Sequence record: ON528737
Strand: one strand, 5' to 3'
Length of the DNA: 64,000 nucleotides
DNA from: Shigella phage ESh27
The notes below the pieces were generated by a model, which did not search any database, was not told the DNA's origin, and worked only from the letters and a program-made list of their open reading frames with translations. Of this stretch, positions 3,885 to 63,891 are shown one piece after another (within the stretch, counting starts at the first letter, position 1; each line of letters starts with the position of its first letter). Made by a program: the position numbers and the translations under genes.

Positions 3885-3913
3885 TGTACATGCTTTTAGG
3901 ATATGTTATTATA
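3885..3913 (+). promoter_or_regulatory. early-type promoter
   Basis: TGTACA-N16-TATTAT followed by conserved agacctatc. Confidence 0.45.
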
Positions 3914-3940
3914 GACCTATCAAAACAAGAGGAAAACAAA

Positions 3941-4159
3941 ATGAAAACCAAAATGTTAGAAATGATTCGTGAAGCTGGTGATAAAGGTCTTATGGTTAAC
4001 ACTCGTGATGCAGACCAACGTCAAGCATTCGGTGAACTGAAAGCTAAAGGTCTAGTTAAAGCATCCTTGGGAATCGGTAACGCATTACGAGTCACTTTGA
4101 CTCCTGCTGGTAAAGCAATGTTCTTTCAACCTCTTACCAAAAAATCTCGTCGCAAATAA
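3941..4159 (+). CDS. hypothetical protein
   Basis: 72 aa; ATG after AAGAGGAAAA SD. Confidence 0.55.
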   Translation: MKTKMLEMIREAGDKGLMVNTRDADQRQAFGELKAKGLVKASLGIGNALRVTLTPAGKAMFFQPLTKKSRRK

Positions 4160-4161
4160 TT

Positions 4162-4192
4162 GTTTACTTTTGCTTTAAACATGTTATTATAG
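4162..4192 (+). promoter_or_regulatory. early-type promoter
   Basis: GTTTAC-N17-TATTAT-agacctatc. Confidence 0.5.
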
Positions 4193-4229
4193 ACCTATCG
4201 AAACGAAATGAGTAAATTTGGAGAATAAA

Positions 4230-5210
4230 ATGTTCAACGTTCAAATCAAAAAAGGTATCTATCGTAATAACGAAATCTCTGGTTCTTATGTTGCCACAAA
4301 GACATGGTTCCCGGCAAAGCTTAATCCTGAATGTTCCCACTTAGGTGACGGTAAAATTTTCGTTATGATTGATGGTTCTGAACGTGGAGTATGGGTCTTC
4401 AAATCAGACATCGTAATGGAAGGAGTTGAGACATCACCAGTTGCAGTTATTGAAAGCGCTGAAGATATGAAAACTCGTATCAACAAACGCTTTAAAGTAA
4501 TGAACATGATGACGAATGGCATTATCGATGGCAAAATTCGTTCACTCATTATTTCAGGTGCAGCAGGTATTGGTAAGACGTATTCTCTGGATAAAGCACT
4601 TAATAATGCTAATGATAATGGTTTCATCAAATACAAAAGCATTAATGGCAAAATCTCTGGTATTGGCCTTTACGAACAACTTTGGCTCAACCGTGATGCA
4701 GACAGCGTTCTCTTAATCGATGACGTTGACGTATTCTCAGATATGGATATCTTGAACCTTCTTAAAGCAGCATTAGATACTGGCGATAAACGCAAAGTTT
4801 GCTGGAGCACTGCATCATCTTATCTTGATGATAAGGGTATCGATAAAGAATTTGAGTTTGAAGGTACTATCGTTTTCATTACAAACGTTGATATCGATAA
4901 AGAGTTAGAACGCGGTTCGAAACTTGCTCCACACCTTCAAGCTTTAGTATCTCGTTCAGTGTATTTGGACCTTGGAGTACACTCTAATGAAGAGATTATG
5001 GTCCGAGTTGAAGATGTAATATTATCTACTGACATGATGCAGAAACGTGGTCTGACTGATGCTGAAACGTATAAAGCATTGTCCTGGATGAAGGCTAACA
5101 TATCTCGTCTTCGCAATGTATCATTACGTACGGCTCTTTATGTAGCAGATTTTATTTCAACTGATAAAGACGGTTGGGAGGAAATCTCCGAAGTAACTTT
5201 ACTGAAATAA
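4230..5210 (+). CDS. P-loop ATPase (AAA-like)
   Basis: 326 aa; Walker A GAAGIGKT and Walker B VLLIDDVD. Confidence 0.65.
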   Translation: MFNVQIKKGIYRNNEISGSYVATKTWFPAKLNPECSHLGDGKIFVMIDGSERGVWVFKSDIVMEGVETSPVAVIESAEDMKTRINKRFKVMNMMTNGIIDGKIRSLIISGAAGIGKTYSLDKALNNANDNGFIKYKSINGKISGIGLYEQLWLNRDADSVLLIDDVDVFSDMDILNLLKAALDTGDKRKVCWSTASSYLDDKGIDKEFEFEGTIVFITNVDIDKELERGSKLAPHLQALVSRSVYLDLGVHSNEEIMVRVEDVILSTDMMQKRGLTDAETYKALSWMKANISRLRNVSLRTALYVADFISTDKDGWEEISEVTLLK

Positions 5211-5694: not shown

Positions 5695-6222
5695 ATGAAC
5701 GCTAAAGATATTTTCAACCTGGTAAATTATAACGACGGTAAATTTAAATCTGAAGCACAAAGCAAGTTCTTTAATGACGTTGCTTATGGTAACGAGATTA
5801 CCGTGGACGGAGGTCAGATTTTCAAATCTCGCTGGAATTGGATTGTTATCATCGATTCGATTGGAATTGTGGAAGTCTACAAAAACACTAACAAAAAACG
5901 TACATTATTCTGGTCTCGTGAAACTAACGAGCAGTACAAAAAGGATAAAGCATCTCGTTTATCCAAAGTAACCAAGGAAGATATCGAGTTTATCAAGAAA
6001 GATATCGAGATGTACGAAAATTTAATCGCTGAAGACCAGGCAGTACTCGATAAGTTTGATGAAATTAAAGCTTCTCGTGAAATCCCTGACTTCATGAAAG
6101 AAACAGTAAACGAACGATACGCTCTCACTTCAGAACGTATTGCAAACTATACAAAACAGAAATCAGAACGTATTAGTACTCTTCGGAAATTTGAAGAACG
6201 TTTAAAGACGGTTCACGCATAA
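5695..6222 (+). CDS. hypothetical protein
   Basis: 175 aa; GGAGG SD. Confidence 0.6.
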   Translation: MNAKDIFNLVNYNDGKFKSEAQSKFFNDVAYGNEITVDGGQIFKSRWNWIVIIDSIGIVEVYKNTNKKRTLFWSRETNEQYKKDKASRLSKVTKEDIEFIKKDIEMYENLIAEDQAVLDKFDEIKASREIPDFMKETVNERYALTSERIANYTKQKSERISTLRKFEERLKTVHA

Positions 6223-6223
6223 A

Positions 6224-6249
6224 CGCTTTACCCAAGGACGGGTTATAAT
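6224..6249 (+). promoter_or_regulatory. middle-type promoter candidate (Mot-box-like plus -10)
   Basis: cGCTTTAc about 12 nt upstream of TATAAT; resembles T4 MotA-dependent promoter geometry. Confidence 0.3.
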
Positions 6250-6284
6250 GGTTTTGAGTTCCAATTCAATCTGAGGAAATAGTT

Positions 6285-7280
6285 ATGAGCATTACATCTG
6301 ATGCGGTAAAACATGAAATTAACGGTTTATGTGCTTCACAGATTAAAGTGTGGTTTAAAGACCATAACGATCGCAGAGCACTTAATTATGAGCAAATTGC
6401 TATCCAAGTTCATCAATTACTGACTAGTAAATTTGATTTTCATATGCCGTCTGAAATCTATACTAATCTGCCGCGAGCACTTATTAAAGCGTGTAAAGGT
6501 TATGGAAAATCAATGGCTGATGGAATCTTCAGCGCGCTGAATAAACTTAACGTTCTGTCGATGATTAACTCTAACAACATCCTGCGTAATCTAGGACGTA
6601 CTGATTTGTTCGGTCGTGAACAGTGTAAAATGCCTTTGAAATGGATCGTTGCTCATCTTAACGAGAACCAAACACGTTTTATGGCTGTAACAGCACGTTT
6701 ACAAATGGGCCTAGATCGTCAGATGAACTTTAAAACTCATCCACGTTATTCAGGTTCAACAGACTTTTATAAATGCGAGCTTCAAAAGGTCGGTGGCAAA
6801 ACTGTCTTAGTAGTTCGTGTAACGTTTGAAGGACGACGTCAAGGATATTTTGACATAATCGGCTCTGGACTTAAACATTGCGGATTTATCGACGAAGTTG
6901 ATATCAAGCGAGACGGCATTGGATACCGTATTGGATATGTTTGTACTCTTAAAGAAGAGATTTCAGGACCAGCACCAGGACTAAAAGACGTTAGATATAA
7001 AGACGAGCTCGTCGAAGAAATAAAAGAAGTTGAATATGATATCAACCAAGAAGATGCTCTTAAAGACCTTATTGATGAACTGAACCAAGACGTTATTCCG
7101 GTTCAGAAATTTGAATCAAAACATGCTGAGCAAATCAAATACTTTGAAGCTTTGATTAACGAACTTAATGTAACTATTCAACAGACCGACGATGAAATCT
7201 CACGATTGGCCGGATTGAACGGCAAAAATAAAACAGAACGAGCTAATCTTATTCAAGTAGTAAAACTTCTTAAGGAATGA
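6285..7280 (+). CDS. hypothetical protein with C-terminal coiled coil
   Basis: 331 aa; heptad-rich charged C-terminus. Confidence 0.6.
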   Translation: MSITSDAVKHEINGLCASQIKVWFKDHNDRRALNYEQIAIQVHQLLTSKFDFHMPSEIYTNLPRALIKACKGYGKSMADGIFSALNKLNVLSMINSNNILRNLGRTDLFGREQCKMPLKWIVAHLNENQTRFMAVTARLQMGLDRQMNFKTHPRYSGSTDFYKCELQKVGGKTVLVVRVTFEGRRQGYFDIIGSGLKHCGFIDEVDIKRDGIGYRIGYVCTLKEEISGPAPGLKDVRYKDELVEEIKEVEYDINQEDALKDLIDELNQDVIPVQKFESKHAEQIKYFEALINELNVTIQQTDDEISRLAGLNGKNKTERANLIQVVKLLKE

Positions 7281-7309
7281 TGTACAACCAAGGATGGTTG
7301 GAGTATAAT
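7281..7309 (+). promoter_or_regulatory. early-type promoter within stem-loop
   Basis: TGTACA-N17-TATAAT; core caaccaaggatggttggagtataat repeated at 8305 and 49382. Confidence 0.5.
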
Positions 7310-7335
7310 AAATTTTTCAACATGAGGAATATAAA

Positions 7336-8295
7336 ATGGCTCCTATTACACGTAGAGAACTTATCAAAGAATTTACCTCGAACGCATATACCCCAGGACC
7401 TAATCCTATCCGTATGCCTGTAAAGACACCTGAAGAGATTGAGGAAATCTGTTCATATTATGGGATTAATTCTCGTAAGTTTACTCAATTTGAATGTGTT
7501 ACTAACACACCCGTTAAAGAGTTCATTAAAAATGGTGAGTTCAGCCGTTTACTGGCCAAACAGAAACTTCGTAATTTTTGTATTGGCGGTTATGGACAAT
7601 ATTTCGCTAAGCAGTTCCGGAATAACCTTAACAATCTGATGGCCATTGCTTCTCGTATTCGTCCTCAAGCAATTAACATGAAACATTTGAAATATACTTA
7701 CGATAAGTTGGAAATCATGGTTATCAGTGAGAACGAGTTCACTCTTACGTATAAACCTAAGAATGATAACGTTGCTCGTGTATTCCACCAAGCGTTGGAA
7801 GTTTTAGGTGATAATATCCACGAGATTAAAGCAATTTATTCTCGTGAGCTTAATATTATCGACGTTATCAAGAATAAGGGCCATATCGCTATCCAGGCTC
7901 GTGTATCTATTGGTAAAAAGGTTCCTGCGCCATGGTGGCACAAAGACTCTGAATACTATCAAAATCTTAAAAAGGAAAATGCATTGTTTGAAGGCAATAT
8001 TACAGCAACACCAGTCGGTAATGCAGAGGTTCTAGGCGCATATTCTCCGGCACAATCTGGTATGTTTAAAGGTTTGCCAAATGTGTGCAAACTGTCGGCA
8101 GTAAAACTAAATGTTTCTAATGACCTTCTTCCGGCTGAAGATTATCATTACAATCAAATCAAGGCTACTGTAGACCAACTGTCTGCTGAACTTGATAAGG
8201 CACAAGCTAAGCTTCGTGATGCTCAACAGGTGGTGACCAATCTCCAGTTGCAGTACTCTAAACTTTTTAACGCAATGAATGCATTAAAATCATAA
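7336..8295 (+). CDS. hypothetical protein with C-terminal coiled coil
   Basis: 319 aa. Confidence 0.6.
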   Translation: MAPITRRELIKEFTSNAYTPGPNPIRMPVKTPEEIEEICSYYGINSRKFTQFECVTNTPVKEFIKNGEFSRLLAKQKLRNFCIGGYGQYFAKQFRNNLNNLMAIASRIRPQAINMKHLKYTYDKLEIMVISENEFTLTYKPKNDNVARVFHQALEVLGDNIHEIKAIYSRELNIIDVIKNKGHIAIQARVSIGKKVPAPWWHKDSEYYQNLKKENALFEGNITATPVGNAEVLGAYSPAQSGMFKGLPNVCKLSAVKLNVSNDLLPAEDYHYNQIKATVDQLSAELDKAQAKLRDAQQVVTNLQLQYSKLFNAMNALKS

Positions 8296-8299
8296 ATCA

Positions 8300-8329
8300 G
8301 TTTACAACCAAGGATGGTTGGAGTATAAT
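8300..8329 (+). promoter_or_regulatory. early-type promoter within stem-loop
   Basis: GTTTAC-N18-TATAAT; same 25-mer core as 7285 and 49382. Confidence 0.5.
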
Positions 8330-8357
8330 GAATCTATCTTAACGAGAGGAAAATATT

Positions 8358-9302
8358 ATGACGCGTTCACATTACATTGAATACTTTGCCGGTCTTATCG
8401 CTAACGTTCGTGCCCAGCGCGCCGTTGGTGCACTAGGATTTGATGTTCCACACCGAGATGTAGTAAGTGGTATTCTTCGCGATTTTGGTACATACACAGG
8501 CCAAGAAAACCATATCTGTAAAGATACTCAGAATGCGTATTCTCATTCATTAGGGACACTGCTTCAATGGTTCAAACGTTCTCGTTTATTATCTTCTACT
8601 GTAGCTCGCGATAACATTAAAAACTTTATGAAGCCGAGCTTTATTAAATCTGTGACATCTAAAACCGATTTGGTTGAATTCACTATTGTTAATGATGTTA
8701 AAAAGGCTCATTTGGCCGATTGGTTATCTACCATTCCTGAAACTAAATTTGCCGATAAATTTGCTTGTGAATTCAACAACCAAGTGAATATGCTTTTTAA
8801 ACATTCTCGTAAATTATTCACAGGCGGTGATGGTCGTACAAATAAAGTTCATGTTAAAGATTGGGTTACTGCAGTATTCAAACCAACCGGTAATGGTAAC
8901 GCATCATTATCAATTGATATCCAGGTTCCTTATTACTACTCACGTAATCTCGGTACCATGAAAGCCGAAGAAATTAATAAGCACAACAAAACCGTTCGTT
9001 CATTGTCTTATAAACTCCTTGTGATGTTACAGACTATGGATGTTGTTGAAATGTTTGACGAAACCGAAGATAACGGTTCAATGTTATTCAGTTCTCGAAT
9101 TCGAATTAAACTGAAGAACCCTAATGTGTTTAAGCCTATTAAAGAACCTAAAGCAGAAAAGGTCGATATCATGGCTGAAGAACGTGAGTACCTCAAATCT
9201 CGTCTGAAAGAAGTCGAAGCCCAGATTGCAGAACAAACTAAATCGTTAAAAGCTCTGAATGCGAAAGCTGACGGTTTACGAAATGCCATTGAGGTGTTAT
9301 AA
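8358..9302 (+). CDS. hypothetical protein with C-terminal coiled coil
   Basis: 314 aa. Confidence 0.6.
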   Translation: MTRSHYIEYFAGLIANVRAQRAVGALGFDVPHRDVVSGILRDFGTYTGQENHICKDTQNAYSHSLGTLLQWFKRSRLLSSTVARDNIKNFMKPSFIKSVTSKTDLVEFTIVNDVKKAHLADWLSTIPETKFADKFACEFNNQVNMLFKHSRKLFTGGDGRTNKVHVKDWVTAVFKPTGNGNASLSIDIQVPYYYSRNLGTMKAEEINKHNKTVRSLSYKLLVMLQTMDVVEMFDETEDNGSMLFSSRIRIKLKNPNVFKPIKEPKAEKVDIMAEEREYLKSRLKEVEAQIAEQTKSLKALNAKADGLRNAIEVL

Positions 9303-9607
9303 TGAACTTACGTCTTTTAGAGGATATTGATATGAACACTAATCACAGCTTAGTTAAGTTTATTGATGATAGTTCAAAGATTGAATTTGTTCAGCGAGAT
9401 AAAATCCACGGTGAAGAAGAGTTCGTTCCTCCAGCATGGAACGAAATAATGAAAATGGTTGAACGACGTGAAAATGCTGCCAAATCGGCAGCAAAACATC
9501 CATGTCCGGAATGTGGAACTATCCAAGTCCAATTGGTTAACTGGACCACTGATAACTTGAAATTGAAATGCCGTAAATGCTTCCACAAATTTGAGAGAAC
9601 ATTATAA
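9302..9607 (+). CDS. hypothetical zinc-ribbon protein
   Basis: 101 aa; CPEC...CRKC motif. Confidence 0.55.
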   Translation: MNLRLLEDIDMNTNHSLVKFIDDSSKIEFVQRDKIHGEEEFVPPAWNEIMKMVERRENAAKSAAKHPCPECGTIQVQLVNWTTDNLKLKCRKCFHKFERTL

Positions 9608-10020
9608 TGAGATATAGCCTTCGTTGTTTTATCGCAGCTTTAGTTTTTGCTGTTATTCCATTCATTTGGAACAGCCAGAATACTTACATGGAAACTAAAG
9701 TAATTCCTGTGGAGGTAGTGGAATTAATCTCAGGCCAATCTACAGGAAAATATTCTAAATTAGAATTTATTGCAGTCTATAAAGACGAGCAAGGACGAGT
9801 TTTTGACAGGCATGTATCACCGTCATTTTATACGCTTCTGAATAAAGGTGATACGATAGCTATAGAAATTCGTGAGATGGATATTCAACAAAATAGTAAA
9901 GATAACCTGATTTGGTTCTTTGGTACAGTGTTGTTGGTTTCTATCTGTATCACAGGTTTTATTACATGTATTGTATTGGGTGTTAATTGCTTAATTGACG
10001 AAAGGAAAAATAATGTTTAA
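9607..10020 (+). CDS. hypothetical membrane protein
   Basis: 137 aa; N- and C-terminal hydrophobic helices. Confidence 0.55.
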   Translation: MRYSLRCFIAALVFAVIPFIWNSQNTYMETKVIPVEVVELISGQSTGKYSKLEFIAVYKDEQGRVFDRHVSPSFYTLLNKGDTIAIEIREMDIQQNSKDNLIWFFGTVLLVSICITGFITCIVLGVNCLIDERKNNV

Positions 10021-10757: not shown

Positions 10758-10928
10758 ATGCAAGTTAAATTATTGTACCGTTTATTAAAAAACGGCAAAC
10801 ATGATTGGTATTTGCTTATTAAAACCGATCCGAATTTTTTCTCTGGACAACCATTTACAGTTCGTCCTACTAAACGTCAGCTTCGCAAAGCTAAACGTTC
10901 TCATCGTAACTTTTATAAAGTTTACTAA
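10758..10928 (+). CDS. hypothetical small basic protein
   Basis: 56 aa; C-terminal VRPTKRQLRKAKR tail shared with ORF 38732..38944. Confidence 0.4.
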   Translation: MQVKLLYRLLKNGKHDWYLLIKTDPNFFSGQPFTVRPTKRQLRKAKRSHRNFYKVY

Positions 10929-10930
10929 AT

Positions 10931-10938
10931 TATAAATA
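10931..10938 (+). promoter_or_regulatory. T4-type late promoter (TATAAATA)
   Basis: exact TATAAATA about 30 nt upstream of gene 49. Confidence 0.5.
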
Positions 10939-16199: not shown

Positions 16200-16234
16200 T
16201 GTACAGACTCTTGAGAGCAGAGTATAATGCTCTC
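16200..16234 (+). promoter_or_regulatory. early-type promoter within stem-loop (PeSL-like)
   Basis: TGTACA-N17-TATAAT; gagagc/gctctc inverted repeat; near-identical copy at 60883..60917. Confidence 0.5.
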
Positions 16235-16265: not shown

Positions 16266-16598
16266 ATGTCTACTAAAATCAAAAACGTAGTTAATTCTTT
16301 CGCTTTCGATAAAGTTGTTGCTCTTCTGGAATCCGGCAATATTGTTACTCCTCAAGTTCTTGACGCGTGGGAATTCCGTCTTTATGAAATCATGCAAAAA
16401 CACGACCAGAAAATTGGACGTAATTCTATTCGTGAAATTCTAGTACAATATATTCTTTCTGAATTTGACGTTGCTGCATTTGGTGTTGAATCTAAAGCTT
16501 ATCAGAAACATGAAATCTCTGAAAAGACTATCCGTCGTATGAAAAATCAACGTAAGAAAAAATTCGTTGACCTGAAAATTGTTAAGGCGGTAAAATGA
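16266..16598 (+). CDS. hypothetical protein
   Basis: 110 aa; GAGGAAAA SD. Confidence 0.5.
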   Translation: MSTKIKNVVNSFAFDKVVALLESGNIVTPQVLDAWEFRLYEIMQKHDQKIGRNSIREILVQYILSEFDVAAFGVESKAYQKHEISEKTIRRMKNQRKKKFVDLKIVKAVK

Positions 16599-38169: not shown

Positions 38170-38198
38170 GTTTACTTCTCCGGTAGTTGTGTTATTAT
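38170..38198 (+). promoter_or_regulatory. early-type promoter
   Basis: GTTTAC-N17-TATTAT-agacctatc. Confidence 0.5.
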
Positions 38199-48693: not shown

Positions 48694-49371
48694 ATGAGCA
48701 CTGATGTTATTATAGATTTTGAAACATTCGGCAATACATCAAAAGCTGCTGTTATTGACCTTGCGGTTATTGCATATAATTCCGACCCTGAAGTTGTTGA
48801 AACATTTGAAGAACTTGTTCAACGAGGTAAGCGAATTAAATTTAATTTAGCTTCTCAGAAAGGGAAGCGAGTTTTCGCTAAATCCACTATGAAATGGTGG
48901 AAAGAACAATCAGCAGAAGCACGTAAAAACCTGGCTCCGTCTGAAGACGATGTCACTACGCTTGAAGGCATTAAAATCTTTTTAGATTATTGTCGAGCTA
49001 ATAAAGTTGACCAATGGAAATCACAGATGTGGTGCCGTGGTATGAGCTTTGACTTCCCGATATTGGTCGATTTGATTCGTGATCTCTATCGTGATGAAGG
49101 TGTTCTTGAACCAGATATTGATACTGATAAATTAGAACCGGTTAAATTCTGGGCTCAACGCGATATTCGTACGGCAATCGAAGCTTACTCGTTGACACGA
49201 GGATTAAGTATGTGTCCATTACCGATGGGTACGCTAAAAGGATTCGTTGCCCATGATAGTATTCATGATTGTGCTAAAGATATTTTGATGTTAAAATATG
49301 CTCAGCGTTATGCGCTTGGTCTTGAAGATGTCCCTGAGAATCCTGACCCGTTAAGTGTAAAACAGCGATAA
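48694..49371 (+). CDS. dexA: exonuclease A (DEDD 3'-5' exonuclease)
   Basis: 225 aa; N-terminal IIDFETFG exo motif; position after dda as in T4. Confidence 0.8.
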   Translation: MSTDVIIDFETFGNTSKAAVIDLAVIAYNSDPEVVETFEELVQRGKRIKFNLASQKGKRVFAKSTMKWWKEQSAEARKNLAPSEDDVTTLEGIKIFLDYCRANKVDQWKSQMWCRGMSFDFPILVDLIRDLYRDEGVLEPDIDTDKLEPVKFWAQRDIRTAIEAYSLTRGLSMCPLPMGTLKGFVAHDSIHDCAKDILMLKYAQRYALGLEDVPENPDPLSVKQR

Positions 49372-49376
49372 AATCA

Positions 49377-49406
49377 GTTTACAACCAAGGATGGTTGGAG
49401 TATAAT
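49377..49406 (+). promoter_or_regulatory. early-type promoter within stem-loop
   Basis: GTTTAC-N18-TATAAT; same 25-mer core as 7285 and 8305. Confidence 0.5.
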
Positions 49407-49437
49407 CTTTCTATCTTAACCAAACAGGAAAAACATT

Positions 49438-49932
49438 ATGAATATCAATACTACGGCTACTTACATCCTGAAAGACGAAAAACAAATTAACTGGTATGGT
49501 GCTTCAGTGCGAGCTTACGAAAAGTTTTGTGAAATTTTAGGCACCACTCAAGGTAATAGTTTCACTATTGTTAACTTCATCAAACAAGCTGAAGGCCCTT
49601 GGTTATTCTTAGAAATTAAAAATTCATATGGTACAATTTCCACTACCGCCCTTCCAAGCACAGACTTTGAACTGTTGATTGAAGAAGTAGAACCCGTTAA
49701 AGACATCTGTATTGATATGGATATCGCTTGTATGTACGGTACTCTGATTAAGCCTATTGAGCCTACTGATTTGCTGTGTAAATATGTTTCAATTCGACGC
49801 CCGTTCGCAGGTCCAGTAAATGGATGGGTAACTGACCAGTGGATTGAAGACGGTGTTGAACTTCTGAACGTTGTTCATGCAGGTGATTTTAGTGTAGTTC
49901 CACGTAGTGCTGTGGTTAATATCCTTAATTAA
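49438..49932 (+). CDS. hypothetical protein (paralog family, copy 1)
   Basis: 164 aa; C-terminal GWVTDQWIEDGVELLNVVHAGDFSVV shared with the next two genes. Confidence 0.55.
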   Translation: MNINTTATYILKDEKQINWYGASVRAYEKFCEILGTTQGNSFTIVNFIKQAEGPWLFLEIKNSYGTISTTALPSTDFELLIEEVEPVKDICIDMDIACMYGTLIKPIEPTDLLCKYVSIRRPFAGPVNGWVTDQWIEDGVELLNVVHAGDFSVVPRSAVVNILN

Positions 49933-49935
49933 TGT

Positions 49936-49964
49936 TGTACATCCAAGGATGGATGGAGTATAAT
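49936..49964 (+). promoter_or_regulatory. early-type promoter within stem-loop
   Basis: TGTACA-N17-TATAAT; variant of the caaccaagg...tataat core. Confidence 0.5.
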
Positions 49965-49994: not shown

Positions 49995-50480
49995 ATGAAT
50001 CTTGGTATTATTGGTGAAATCGTTCGCGTATCTAACAAATCTCGTTCTAAAGCCGCAGGAAAATTGGTCGAAGTTGTAAGTATTCAACTTAAAGAAGGCG
50101 TTAAAGATGAAGATTCTGAGGTAAAAGTTCGTATTATTCCTAGTTTTGGGACACAGGAAACCAAATTTGCTTATGTTCGTGCAAAGTTCTTGGAAACGCC
50201 TGTGAGTAGTGCTTTTGCTTCAAGAGAAAAAGTTGAATCCACAGAGCATAATGCACAGTTCAAATGGGCCTTGTGTAAAGGTGTTGAATTCCAGACCGAT
50301 AAAGAATTTGACTTCATCGATGAATATGGTTATCCAAGCAAAACTGATACTATGTGTGGCTTCATTAGTGACCAATGGGTTGAAGATGGTGAAAAGTTAT
50401 ACAATATCGTATTCTTAGGTGACTTCCGAGTTGTTAAAGAATCTGAAATCACTCGCTATGTGTCTCCTCGTAAAGCTTAA
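49995..50480 (+). CDS. hypothetical protein (paralog family, copy 2)
   Basis: 161 aa; N-terminal SRSKAAGKLVEVVS and C-terminal GFISDQWVEDGEKLYNIVFLGDFRVV. Confidence 0.55.
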   Translation: MNLGIIGEIVRVSNKSRSKAAGKLVEVVSIQLKEGVKDEDSEVKVRIIPSFGTQETKFAYVRAKFLETPVSSAFASREKVESTEHNAQFKWALCKGVEFQTDKEFDFIDEYGYPSKTDTMCGFISDQWVEDGEKLYNIVFLGDFRVVKESEITRYVSPRKA

Positions 50481-60882: not shown

Positions 60883-60917
60883 TGTACAAACTCTTGAGAG
60901 CAGAGTATAATGCTCTC
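60883..60917 (+). promoter_or_regulatory. early-type promoter within stem-loop (PeSL-like)
   Basis: TGTACA-N17-TATAAT; near-identical to 16200..16234. Confidence 0.5.
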
Positions 60918-60955
60918 ATGGATTACAAAAACATTAATCAATTGAGGAAATTAGC

Positions 60956-61402
60956 ATGACCAAATATTTAACTCGTAAAGACCTTCTGGCCGTTGGCGGT
61001 GAAGTTGTTGCAGTAGTTCGTAATGGTGAATACGGTTCCGAAGTTTCTAAAGAGTTTCGTTCTCGTGAAGGTTTTTACTTCTTTGTTAAAGGTTCATCTG
61101 ACTGGCGACAAGTAGCAGCACGATTCTTTGTAGGACGCCAACGTTCTAAACAAGGGTTAGATGCAATTCTTTCTCACATTCGTCAAGGCCGTTCGCAACT
61201 GGCTCGTACCATGGGCACTAATAATATTGAATATGATGTAATCTTTGTTTCAGCCAAGAACATGAAACCTCTGACTACCGGTTATGGTAAAGGTCAATTG
61301 GCTCTGGCATTCACTCGCAATCATTCATCAGAATATCAAACACTCACTGAAATGAACCGTCTTCTGGCTGATAATTTCAAATTCATTCTGCAGAGTTACT
61401 AA
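60956..61402 (+). CDS. ndd: nucleoid disruption protein Ndd-like
   Basis: 148 aa; [30 protein letters not shown] and SHIRQ.RSQLART match my recollection of T4 Ndd. Confidence 0.55.
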
Positions 61403-63148: not shown

Positions 63149-63179
63149 GGGAGCTTCGGCTCCCTTTGTGCATTTTTTT
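63149..63179 (+). terminator. rho-independent terminator (UUCG loop)
   Basis: gggagcttcggctccc followed by T-run. Confidence 0.6.
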
Positions 63180-63189
63180 CTCACAAAAC

Positions 63190-63219
63190 AGTTTACATGT
63201 GCTTCAAACGTGATATTAT
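63190..63219 (+). promoter_or_regulatory. early-type promoter
   Basis: GTTTAC-N18-TATTAT-agacctatc. Confidence 0.5.
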
Positions 63220-63258
63220 AGACCTATCAAAACAAAACAACCAAATTGGAGAAATAAA

Positions 63259-63891
63259 ATGTCTAAAGTTACTTACATCATCAAAGCTTCTGAAAACGCT
63301 CTGAATGAAAAAACTGCGGCAATAATGGTTTATATCATTAAGAACAACTTCACCACTGCTGCCAATGTCCGTGAAGCTCTGGAAGCAGAATACAATGCAT
63401 CAGTTGTTAACTCTAACATTGGTGTATTGATTAAGAAAGGTTTAGTCGAAAAATCCGGTGATGGACTTGTGGCAACCGGCGAAGCAATGGATATTATCCA
63501 AAAAGCTGCAGACCTATTTGCTCAAGAAAATGCTCCAGAACTTCTTCAGAAACGTAACACTAGAAAAGCACGTGGAGTTACTCCTGAAATGCATGAATTA
63601 GCAAACTTTGTTTTTGAAAATATTAAAGATAAAGTTGAAGTTAAAGAAATTGGTGAAAACCGTAGTAACTTGGAAGTTCGATTTGCAAAACGAGTTCTAG
63701 GTATTCGCCAAATTGAAATTCGACGAGATGGCGCTCTTAGAATCTTTGCATACAACATGTCAGAAGCTGAATCAAAGCTGTTTACTTCTCTTGAAAATGA
63801 TGTTAAGATTAAGATCGGTGGTAAATATACTTACATTGACTTCCCTAATGTGTCCAAAGAAATCATTACCCTTGTAACTAACGTACTGTGA
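63259..63891 (+). CDS. motA: middle-transcription activator MotA
   Basis: 210 aa; MSKVTYIIKAS...VVNSNIGVLIKKGLVEKSGDGL...AQENAPELL matches remembered T4 MotA. Confidence 0.7.
   Translation: MSKVTYIIKASENALNEKTAAIMVYIIKNNFTTAANVREALEAEYNASVVNSNIGVLIKKGLVEKSGDGLVATGEAMDIIQKAADLFAQENAPELLQKRNTRKARGVTPEMHELANFVFENIKDKVEVKEIGENRSNLEVRFAKRVLGIRQIEIRRDGALRIFAYNMSEAESKLFTSLENDVKIKIGGKYTYIDFPNVSKEIITLVTNVL

Follow-up and report, generated by a model that had tools for sequence, protein, structure and literature searches.

Early-promoter repeats in Shigella phage ESh27 and the gain and loss of the genes between them

Introduction

Why do near-identical promoter-like sequences recur at distant sites of one phage genome, and can they serve as points of rearrangement? 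This question is raised by a stretch of 64,000 nucleotides from Shigella phage ESh27 (sequence record ON528737), referred to here as the window. Repeats of 25-35 bp were noticed in this window, and the original prediction was that such direct repeats could support homologous recombination, with deletion or duplication of the intervening 1 to 44 kb, or module exchange. The analysis described here argues strongly that the repeats are two small families of sigma-70-dependent early promoters, built as cassettes of the type known as PeSL, and that crossover between neighbouring copies gains or loses the intervening gene. The window is 95-98% identical to phages of the RB69 group (genus Mosigvirus, Straboviridae), and by sequence comparison its source is an RB69-like T4-type phage of this genus. 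The window runs antiparallel to the RB69 coordinates, and the early-gene strand is therefore the plus strand of the window. The gene contexts given below were read from the annotations of RB69, p000v, and HX01.

Two families of early promoters

The 25-mer core CAACCAAGGATGGTTGGAGTATAAT was found exactly at 7285-7309, 8305-8329, and 49382-49406 on the plus strand, and a variant with two mismatches, CATCCAAGGATGGATGGAGTATAAT, at 49940-49964. A second repeat, the 34-mer GTACA(G/A)ACTCTTGAGAGCAGAGTATAATGCTCTC, occupies 16201-16234 and 60884-60917. Dinucleotide-preserving shuffles gave a chance expectation of 0.00 matches for the core, and the expectation for the 34-mer in shuffles was 0. The three core positions first proposed (about 7285, 8305, and 49382) agree with the exact matches, as does the first site of the second repeat; the close variant was earlier put at 49938 and the second site of the 34-mer at 60886, so that all coordinates were correct within 2 nt. 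Each copy is given a letter here, with the position at which its -35 hexamer begins: A (7281), B (8301), C (49378), D (49936), E (16200), and F (60883).

An ungapped alignment anchored on TATAAT confirmed that the core repeats are identical, except for the two mismatches of copy D. Copies B (8294-8343) and C (49371-49420) share 36 exact nt, followed by three mismatches and 11 more exact nt, a longer homology than earlier noted, and a 27-nt block of copy A is common to both. The identity covers the intergenic cassette alone and breaks off abruptly at the coding sequences on either side. Two metagenome contigs that represent complete genomes (170,927 and 167,569 bp) each carry exactly three exact cores and one D-type variant, and hence such genomes contain no additional copies. 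Just 10 loci, all in a few Mosigvirus contigs, came from the metagenome scan; they provided the copy number and one-copy alleles but were too few for covariation statistics. The 25-mer family was found in Mosigvirus only, where the core is near-invariant across about 150 genomes and better conserved than the flanking genes.

What kind of element is repeated? Each copy consists of TTTACA or TGTACA, a 17-nt spacer, and TATAAT, and the upstream gene's stop codon stands immediately before it. The cassettes are AT-rich on their 5' side, between that stop codon and the -35 hexamer, and a Shine-Dalgarno (SD) sequence and start codon follow 26-44 nt downstream of each copy; the untranslated leader that carries the SD measures about 25-45 nt. 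All six copies match the sigma-70 consensus at 10-11 of 12 positions with the same spacer length. T4-type early promoters carry GTTTAC at -36 to -31 and TAnnnT at -12 to -7; GTTTAC is present in copies B and C, the (T/G)GTAC variant, TGTACA, takes its place in copies A, D, E, and F, and all six have TATAAT. A scan of the window with this pattern identified 28 such intergenic sites on the plus strand, every one with a downstream SD and ATG, whereas matches on the minus strand were scattered within genes.

The four copies of the first family are arranged as two neighbouring pairs, all on the plus strand. Copy A (7281-7309; -35 TGTACA at 7281-7286, -10 TATAAT at 7304-7309) directly follows the stop codon of nrdC.6 (7278-7280) and sits between nrdC.6 and nrdC.5. 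The gene nrdC.5 (319 amino acids; 7336-8295) is the cassette between copies A and B. Copy B (8294-8343; -35 TTTACA at 8301-8306, -10 at 8324-8329) separates nrdC.5 from its downstream gene nrdC.3 (ATG at 8358). Copy C (49371-49420; -35 at 49378-49383, -10 at 49401-49406) directly follows the dexA stop codon and precedes a MotB-like gene (164 amino acids; 49438-49932), which is the cassette between copies C and D. Copy D (49936-49964; -35 TGTACA, -10 at 49959-49964) lies between this gene and motB (ATG at 49995). The MotB-like gene is a weak paralog of the gene that follows it (49995-50480; BLASTP E = 3e-9). In p000v the -10 of copy D is TATAGC in place of TATAAT, and the copy may be decaying there.

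The second family consists of two copies, also on the plus strand. Copy E (16200-16234; -35 TGTACA at 16200-16205, -10 at 16223-16228) is located upstream of a 110-amino-acid open reading frame (ORF; 16266-16598) in the gene 55.x region, and copy F (60883-60918; -35 TGTACA at 60883-60888, -10 at 60906-60911) upstream of ndd (60956-61402).

The description of the repeats as promoters is supported by published predictions for RB69. Early promoters were predicted in RB69 at positions orthologous to copies A (Pe:52042) and B (Pe:51019), and two others, Pe:8947 and Pe:8387, lie 560 bp apart beside dexA, as copies C and D do (Nolan et al., 2006, supplementary file S3; PMC1524935). The early-promoter identity of the four focal copies is thus already in the literature, as a prediction, and two GenBank records annotate a "promoter" at this site.

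Loss of genes between neighbouring copies

Do sequenced relatives carry rearrangement junctions at these repeats? Junctions were found at both neighbouring pairs. With a 2.3-kb query across copies A and B, p000v and AV109 matched in two pieces and spanned 1,281 bp compared with 2,301 in the window. The missing 1,020 bp equal the A-to-B spacing exactly. The junction in both phages reads ...AAGGAATGA TGTACAACCAAGGATGGTTGGAGTATAAT GAATCTATCTTAAC..., that is, the left flank of copy A, one 27-bp core, and the right flank of copy B, and nrdC.6 is directly followed by nrdC.3. A 107-nt query that spans this junction matched the one-copy allele over its whole length in 20 records, from about 18 isolates, out of about 153 Mosigvirus records, and the allele was also present in a metagenome contig (L029). 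Since nrdC.5 has an ortholog in T4, the one-copy state represents a deletion. Tandem gene duplication was ruled out as the source of the A/B repeat because nrdC.6, nrdC.5, and nrdC.3 show no similarity and are not paralogs, and because the homology covers only the intergenic cassette. The record of ATK48 annotates a "direct repeat ... binding site of StbAB" inside nrdC.6; this annotation is unrelated to the promoter repeats.

A similar allele exists at the second pair. In ST2, S143_2, and AV116, a single promoter follows dexA, with the left flank and stem of copy C and the right flank of copy D, and the first MotB-like gene, a 558-bp cassette, is absent. This one-copy allele was found in about 19 records and in another metagenome contig (L026). 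In both cases the lost segment has exactly the length of the repeat spacing, and the two flanks are joined without a seam, as a chimera, within the identical core. The two one-copy alleles occur in overlapping but different sets of isolates: p000v carries only the A/B allele and phi25-307 apparently only the C/D allele. The alleles assort independently among isolates.

Other indels bounded by regulatory cassettes

Is this pattern limited to the first family? Chained BLAST blocks were used to compare the window with the homologous ~65 kb of p000v and HX01, and 19 separate indels or replacements, each of 30 bp or more, were identified. In about 10 of the 19 a junction lies no more than ~75 nt from one of the catalogued early promoters. 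Strong cases are the events whose alignment ends overlap, which places the junction inside a direct repeat. Four events have their junctions in repeated regulatory cassettes: the promoter pair at 3885/4163, the A/B event (53-nt alignment overlap), a cassette at 63192, and a duplicated terminator.

The promoters at 3885 and 4163 form a further pair of the same class on the plus strand (3885-4196). Their -35 hexamers are 278 bp apart and the two promoters (3885-3913 and 4163-4191) share ATGTTATTATAGACCTATC. They flank a small ORF; p000v and HX01 lack the intervening segment and have one chimeric promoter (36-nt overlap). At 63192, an 86-nt cassette comprises a promoter and a 5' untranslated region (5'UTR), and HX01 has an extra gene between two copies of it. 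A 92-nt form of this cassette, with promoter, 5'UTR, and first codons, occurs at 4150-4241 and 63179-63270, 59 kb apart and 75% identical; it is at the second of these sites that HX01 (65195-65666) carries its extra segment, a small gene of 236 bp, between two cassette copies. The fourth event involves a canonical intrinsic terminator, GCCCCTTCCGAAAGGTTGGGGCTTTTT, duplicated over 33 nt at 377-408 and 1000-1032, the second copy being directly upstream of promoter 1040. Both p000v and HX01 lack the ~590 bp between the terminator copies, and the junction falls within the terminator repeat, which indicates that terminators, like promoters, act as recombination linkers.

Further variation was seen near the second family. 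In FL31, the 300 bp between promoter 15900 and copy E are absent, with the junction at the shared -35 hexamer, and EP32a has a partial deletion that ends at the -35 of copy E. Elsewhere in the window, the pin gene (an inhibitor of host Lon protease, ~420 bp) is present in p000v, HX01, and RB69 at about 10920-10932 and appears to be missing from the window. Near the topoisomerase gene, HX01 has an HNH endonuclease gene (674 bp) at ~52836 and p000v a homing endonuclease gene (794 bp) at ~54660. Both are absent from the window, and these two indels are not linked to promoters.

Possible exchange between distant copies

The prediction of deletion, duplication, or module exchange thus held for the neighbouring pairs. 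Does it also hold for copies 41-45 kb apart? The B-to-C and E-to-F intervals carry gp55, gp46/47, gp45, gp44/62, regA, DNA polymerase, gp42, uvsX, gp41, gp61, and dda. From T4 biology, deletion of these genes would be lethal, and a duplication of 41-45 kb would exceed the headful. Because the interval holds these core replication genes, a viable deletion or duplication between distant copies is very unlikely, and no rearrangement between distant copies was seen in the relatives examined. This part of the prediction was not supported.

Short-tract exchange is the only form of distant exchange for which the alleles offer hints. The 3-nt block after the -10 of copy B (8330-8332) is GAA in the window and in p000v, and CTT in RB69, HX01, and AV109; CTT is the state of copy C and GAA that of copy D. 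Similarly, the G/A position of copy E matches copy F in p000v, FL31, and EP32a. Gene conversion and old ancestral polymorphism both fit these observations.

Embedded inverted repeats

A further property of these promoters is an inverted repeat. In copy A the spacer contains CAACCA (7285-7290) and TGGTTG (7295-7300) around the loop AGGA, and the same CAACCA-AGGA-TGGTTG is found in copies B and C. Copy D has CATCCA-AGGA-TGGATG, in which both mismatches to copies A-C are symmetric and pairing is kept. The second family has different arms that span the -10: GAGAGCA (16213-16219) and TGCTCTC (16228-16234) in copy E, and TGAGAGCA/TGCTCTCA in copy F. The stems are 6 bp in the spacer of copies A-D and 7-8 bp across the -10 of copies E and F.

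Are such stems more than chance in promoters of this composition? Across the 28 promoters, the mean longest perfect stem was 6.64 nt compared with 5.33 +/- 0.18 when columns were permuted among promoters, and the mean minimum free energy was -11.4 compared with -8.1 +/- 0.5 kcal/mol under the same permutation. Complementarity between the spacer and the region after the -10 was higher for cognate (5.93) than for non-cognate combinations (4.78 +/- 0.21; p <= 1e-4), and the excess held with near-identical copies collapsed (6.04 compared with 4.91). In 11 of the 28, among them promoters 15900, 38171, 50915, 1492, 60110, and 5640, a perfect inverted repeat of at least 7 bp is present; its left arm lies in the spacer and its right arm immediately after the -10 or in the 5'UTR. 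The arms reach up to 12-13 bp; their sequences vary between promoters and match within each promoter. In the p000v and HX01 orthologs, stem positions changed more slowly (7/496, 1.4%) than other positions (65/1744, 3.7%; Fisher p = 0.009). The stem-loops are a real feature of this promoter class.

What could keep such sequences in place? One reading treats the spacer inverted repeats as operators for a dimeric regulator, such as an early-shutoff factor or MotB, whose sequence need would preserve the identity of the copies. The near-invariance of the core, above that of its flanking genes, would fit an operator, and MotB is a candidate in that motB-type genes lie downstream of copies C and D. 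How early promoters are shut off is described as unknown (Hinton, 2010; PMC2988021). Against this, members of the class carry unrelated inverted repeats (GGTCTAT/ATAGACC, TAGGACTA/TAGTCCTA, GAGAGCA/TGCTCTC, and ACGATAGGAAG/CTTCCTATCGT). With arms so different, the class shares symmetry and not sequence, which makes an operator unlikely. The symmetric half-site change of copy D fits base pairing better than base-specific protein contacts, and no candidate protein has been identified. The operator reading is accordingly judged very improbable.

A second possibility is that the left arm serves as an anti-SD element in read-through RNA, so that translation would proceed only from transcripts of the gene's own promoter. 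The spacer does pair with the SD region at 38171 (13 bp), 50915 (13 bp), 1040, and 37737, and the predicted probability of an unpaired SD is 0.61 in the own transcript compared with 0.33 in read-through RNA. Yet non-cognate chimeras occlude the SD equally (0.31 +/- 0.03, p = 0.77), shuffled upstream sequence is nearly as effective (0.38 +/- 0.04, not significantly different), and the stems of copies A-D and E/F do not touch the SD. The occlusion is not cognate-specific; an anti-SD role as a specific effect was therefore rejected, and in general we give it scarcely any credence.

The inverted repeats might instead take an active part in recombination, as hot spots. At very strong promoters, hairpins would form where the DNA is single-stranded or unwound, and structure-specific nucleases of the phage (endonuclease VII, gp46/47) would cut or process them, which would make the shuffling quasi-site-specific. 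The symmetric double change of copy D and the GAA/CTT block of copy B would then be traces of hairpin-centered template switching or gene conversion. We regard such hot spots as very unlikely.

If the explanation by promoter cassettes and crossover is kept, the stem-loop would be confined to read-through RNA from upstream and to DNA in its single-stranded state. By analogy with experiments in RB49 and phi1, it is proposed that the stem-loop may act as an attenuator or insulator, a proposal that is weak for the focal family. An intrinsic (Rho-independent) terminator was not supported for the focal hairpin, given that no U-run follows the focal or E/F stems and that copies A and B were not listed by a terminator scan. 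The 3' edge of the focal hairpin contains the tetranucleotide GGAG (7299-7302, 8319-8322, 49396-49399, and 49954-49957). GGAG is the target of the T4 RegB endoribonuclease; that read-through RNA might be cut by RegB at this site is pure speculation.

Several further observations concern the stems. Copies E and F fold somewhat better than the focal copies (z ~ -2.0 to -2.25). A rare variant of the focal stem, CAGCCA/TGGTTG, occurs in metagenome contig OQVL01012178.1, where a G.T wobble keeps the pairing in RNA only. No Rfam match was found in the whole window. A covariation survey of IMG/VR with the stem positions left free returned no relatives, only 12 unrelated chance matches in which 0-3 of the 6 positions were paired.

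Weighing the explanation

How would the repeats give rise to the observed alleles? The early promoters would be fired by host RNA polymerase immediately after infection. Stretches of 27-50 bp of identical sequence in the same orientation would let the very active recombination and replication machinery of the phage cross over between copies. Crossover between neighbouring copies would remove or insert the intervening gene and leave one chimeric, intact promoter. Because the chimeric promoter is intact, the downstream gene should stay expressed. Distant copies, on the other hand, may swap short sequence tracts. The outcome of the crossover is shown by the natural alleles; the route to it may be homologous recombination, copy-choice, or a mini-circle intermediate.

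A number of points weigh against this explanation. Promoter activity and early timing are deduced from the consensus match and the published predictions. Early promoters are found at ~27% of the gene boundaries in the window, so that an indel near a promoter is weak evidence alone; only the repeat-bounded chimeric junctions are strong evidence. For nine of the 19 indel events, among them two homing-endonuclease insertions in the relatives, no promoter lies close by. The C/D pair could derive from an old tandem duplication of the motB gene plus its promoter, because the genes downstream of the two copies are weak paralogs. The remaining points concern the stem-loop. The focal hairpin is weak (6 bp, folding z-scores of -0.1 to -1.9), and the minimum-energy fold of copies C and D is a different structure. 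No U-tract follows the focal or the E/F stems, and the focal hairpin was not called in a terminator scan over 6000-10000, where copies A and B lie. The loop-closing pair is broken in two genomes (TGG to CGG). Finally, there were no compensatory changes in the stems of the p000v and HX01 orthologs, the seven stem changes being three wobble and four disruptive.

Some of the same points would suit a simpler reading, in which the repeats are leftovers of tandem duplication or of purifying selection on promoter strength, and the deletions are unrelated illegitimate events that end in intergenic DNA. The weak paralogy of the genes downstream of copies C and D would be expected from it, some coincidence is expected with promoters at so many boundaries, and some deletions end outside repeats (e.g., that of EP32a and indel event h). 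The genes flanking copies A and B, however, are not paralogs, and copies 41 kb apart have the same 17-nt spacer although sigma-70 recognition does not constrain its sequence. Base-exact loss of the repeat spacing, with a seamless chimera in the core at A/B and C/D, also argues against unrelated events, and the chimeric pattern recurs at 3885/4163 and 63192. For these reasons the leftover reading appears very improbable, and recombination between promoter cassettes is strongly preferred.

Why does this matter? These alleles illustrate, from clear natural variation within the widely used RB69/Mosigvirus group, how accessory early genes can be gained and lost without disturbing the expression of their neighbours: crossover inside the promoter cassette would regenerate a working promoter. 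The cassettes may be regarded as natural landing pads for insertions. The pattern should be useful for the annotation and engineering of therapeutic Mosigvirus phages, and it predicts which accessory genes are dispensable and unstable (nrdC.5 and the extra motB-like gene).

Comparison with known systems

The repeats reveal no new kind of element. PeSLs were described in RB49 and phi1 as a stop codon, an AT-rich region, a sigma-70-type promoter, a stem-loop, and an SD with ATG (Arbiol et al., 2010; PMC2839356). In that study promoter activity reached ~13,000 Miller units, one stem-loop had terminator-like activity, the indel junctions between RB49 and phi1 were located at PeSLs, and excised mini-circles were detected by inverse polymerase chain reaction. 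PeSLs were later extended to T4/PST (consensus TTTACW-N17-TAYWAT) and KVP40/nt-1 (Comeau et al., 2014; PMC4122927). The cassettes described here share the intergenic position, the stop codon and AT-rich stretch on the 5' side, the sigma-70-type promoter, and the SD and ATG on the 3' side. They also have a short stem-loop, between the -35 and -10 in copies A-D or overlapping the -10 in copies E and F, and they recur many times in one orientation in variable early regions. As with PeSLs, the ORF between cassettes is lost, gained, or replaced from one relative to another, with the crossover in the cassette (A/B, C/D, 3885/4163, and 63192). The stems differ: those of RB49 are formed by a G-tract and a C-tract and terminate transcription, whereas those in the window are AT-richer and variable in sequence, and the focal one is 6 bp and not terminator-like. 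Mini-circles and terminator activity come from experiments in RB49 and phi1, while the present cassettes are known from sequence alone. PeSLs have been described for RB49/phi1, T4/PST, and KVP40/nt-1 and not for the RB69 group; RB69 is not mentioned by Arbiol et al. (2010; PMC2839356).

The copies also resemble T4 early promoters in their GTTTAC-type -35, 17-nt spacing, TAnnnT -10, and A-rich upstream region (Nolan et al., 2006; Hinton, 2010; PMC1524935 and PMC2988021), and in their location 5' of orthologs of the early genes nrdC.x, motB, and ndd. Both of these papers, in contrast to the present analysis, treat early promoters as transcription signals only, and inverted repeats and hairpins are absent from the account of Nolan et al. 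(2006; PMC1524935), as are near-identical subfamilies and any role in indels. As cited in Arbiol et al. (2010; PMC2839356), homology patches of less than 50 bp suffice for T4-type recombination, and deletions remove small non-essential ORFs of variable regions (Singer et al., 1982; Mosig et al., 1998). Those events were laboratory mutants at other loci, while the events described here are natural alleles bounded by regulatory cassettes. To conclude, the feature is of a known kind, T4-type early promoters as PeSL cassettes, and clean deletion alleles from nature document it here in the RB69 group.

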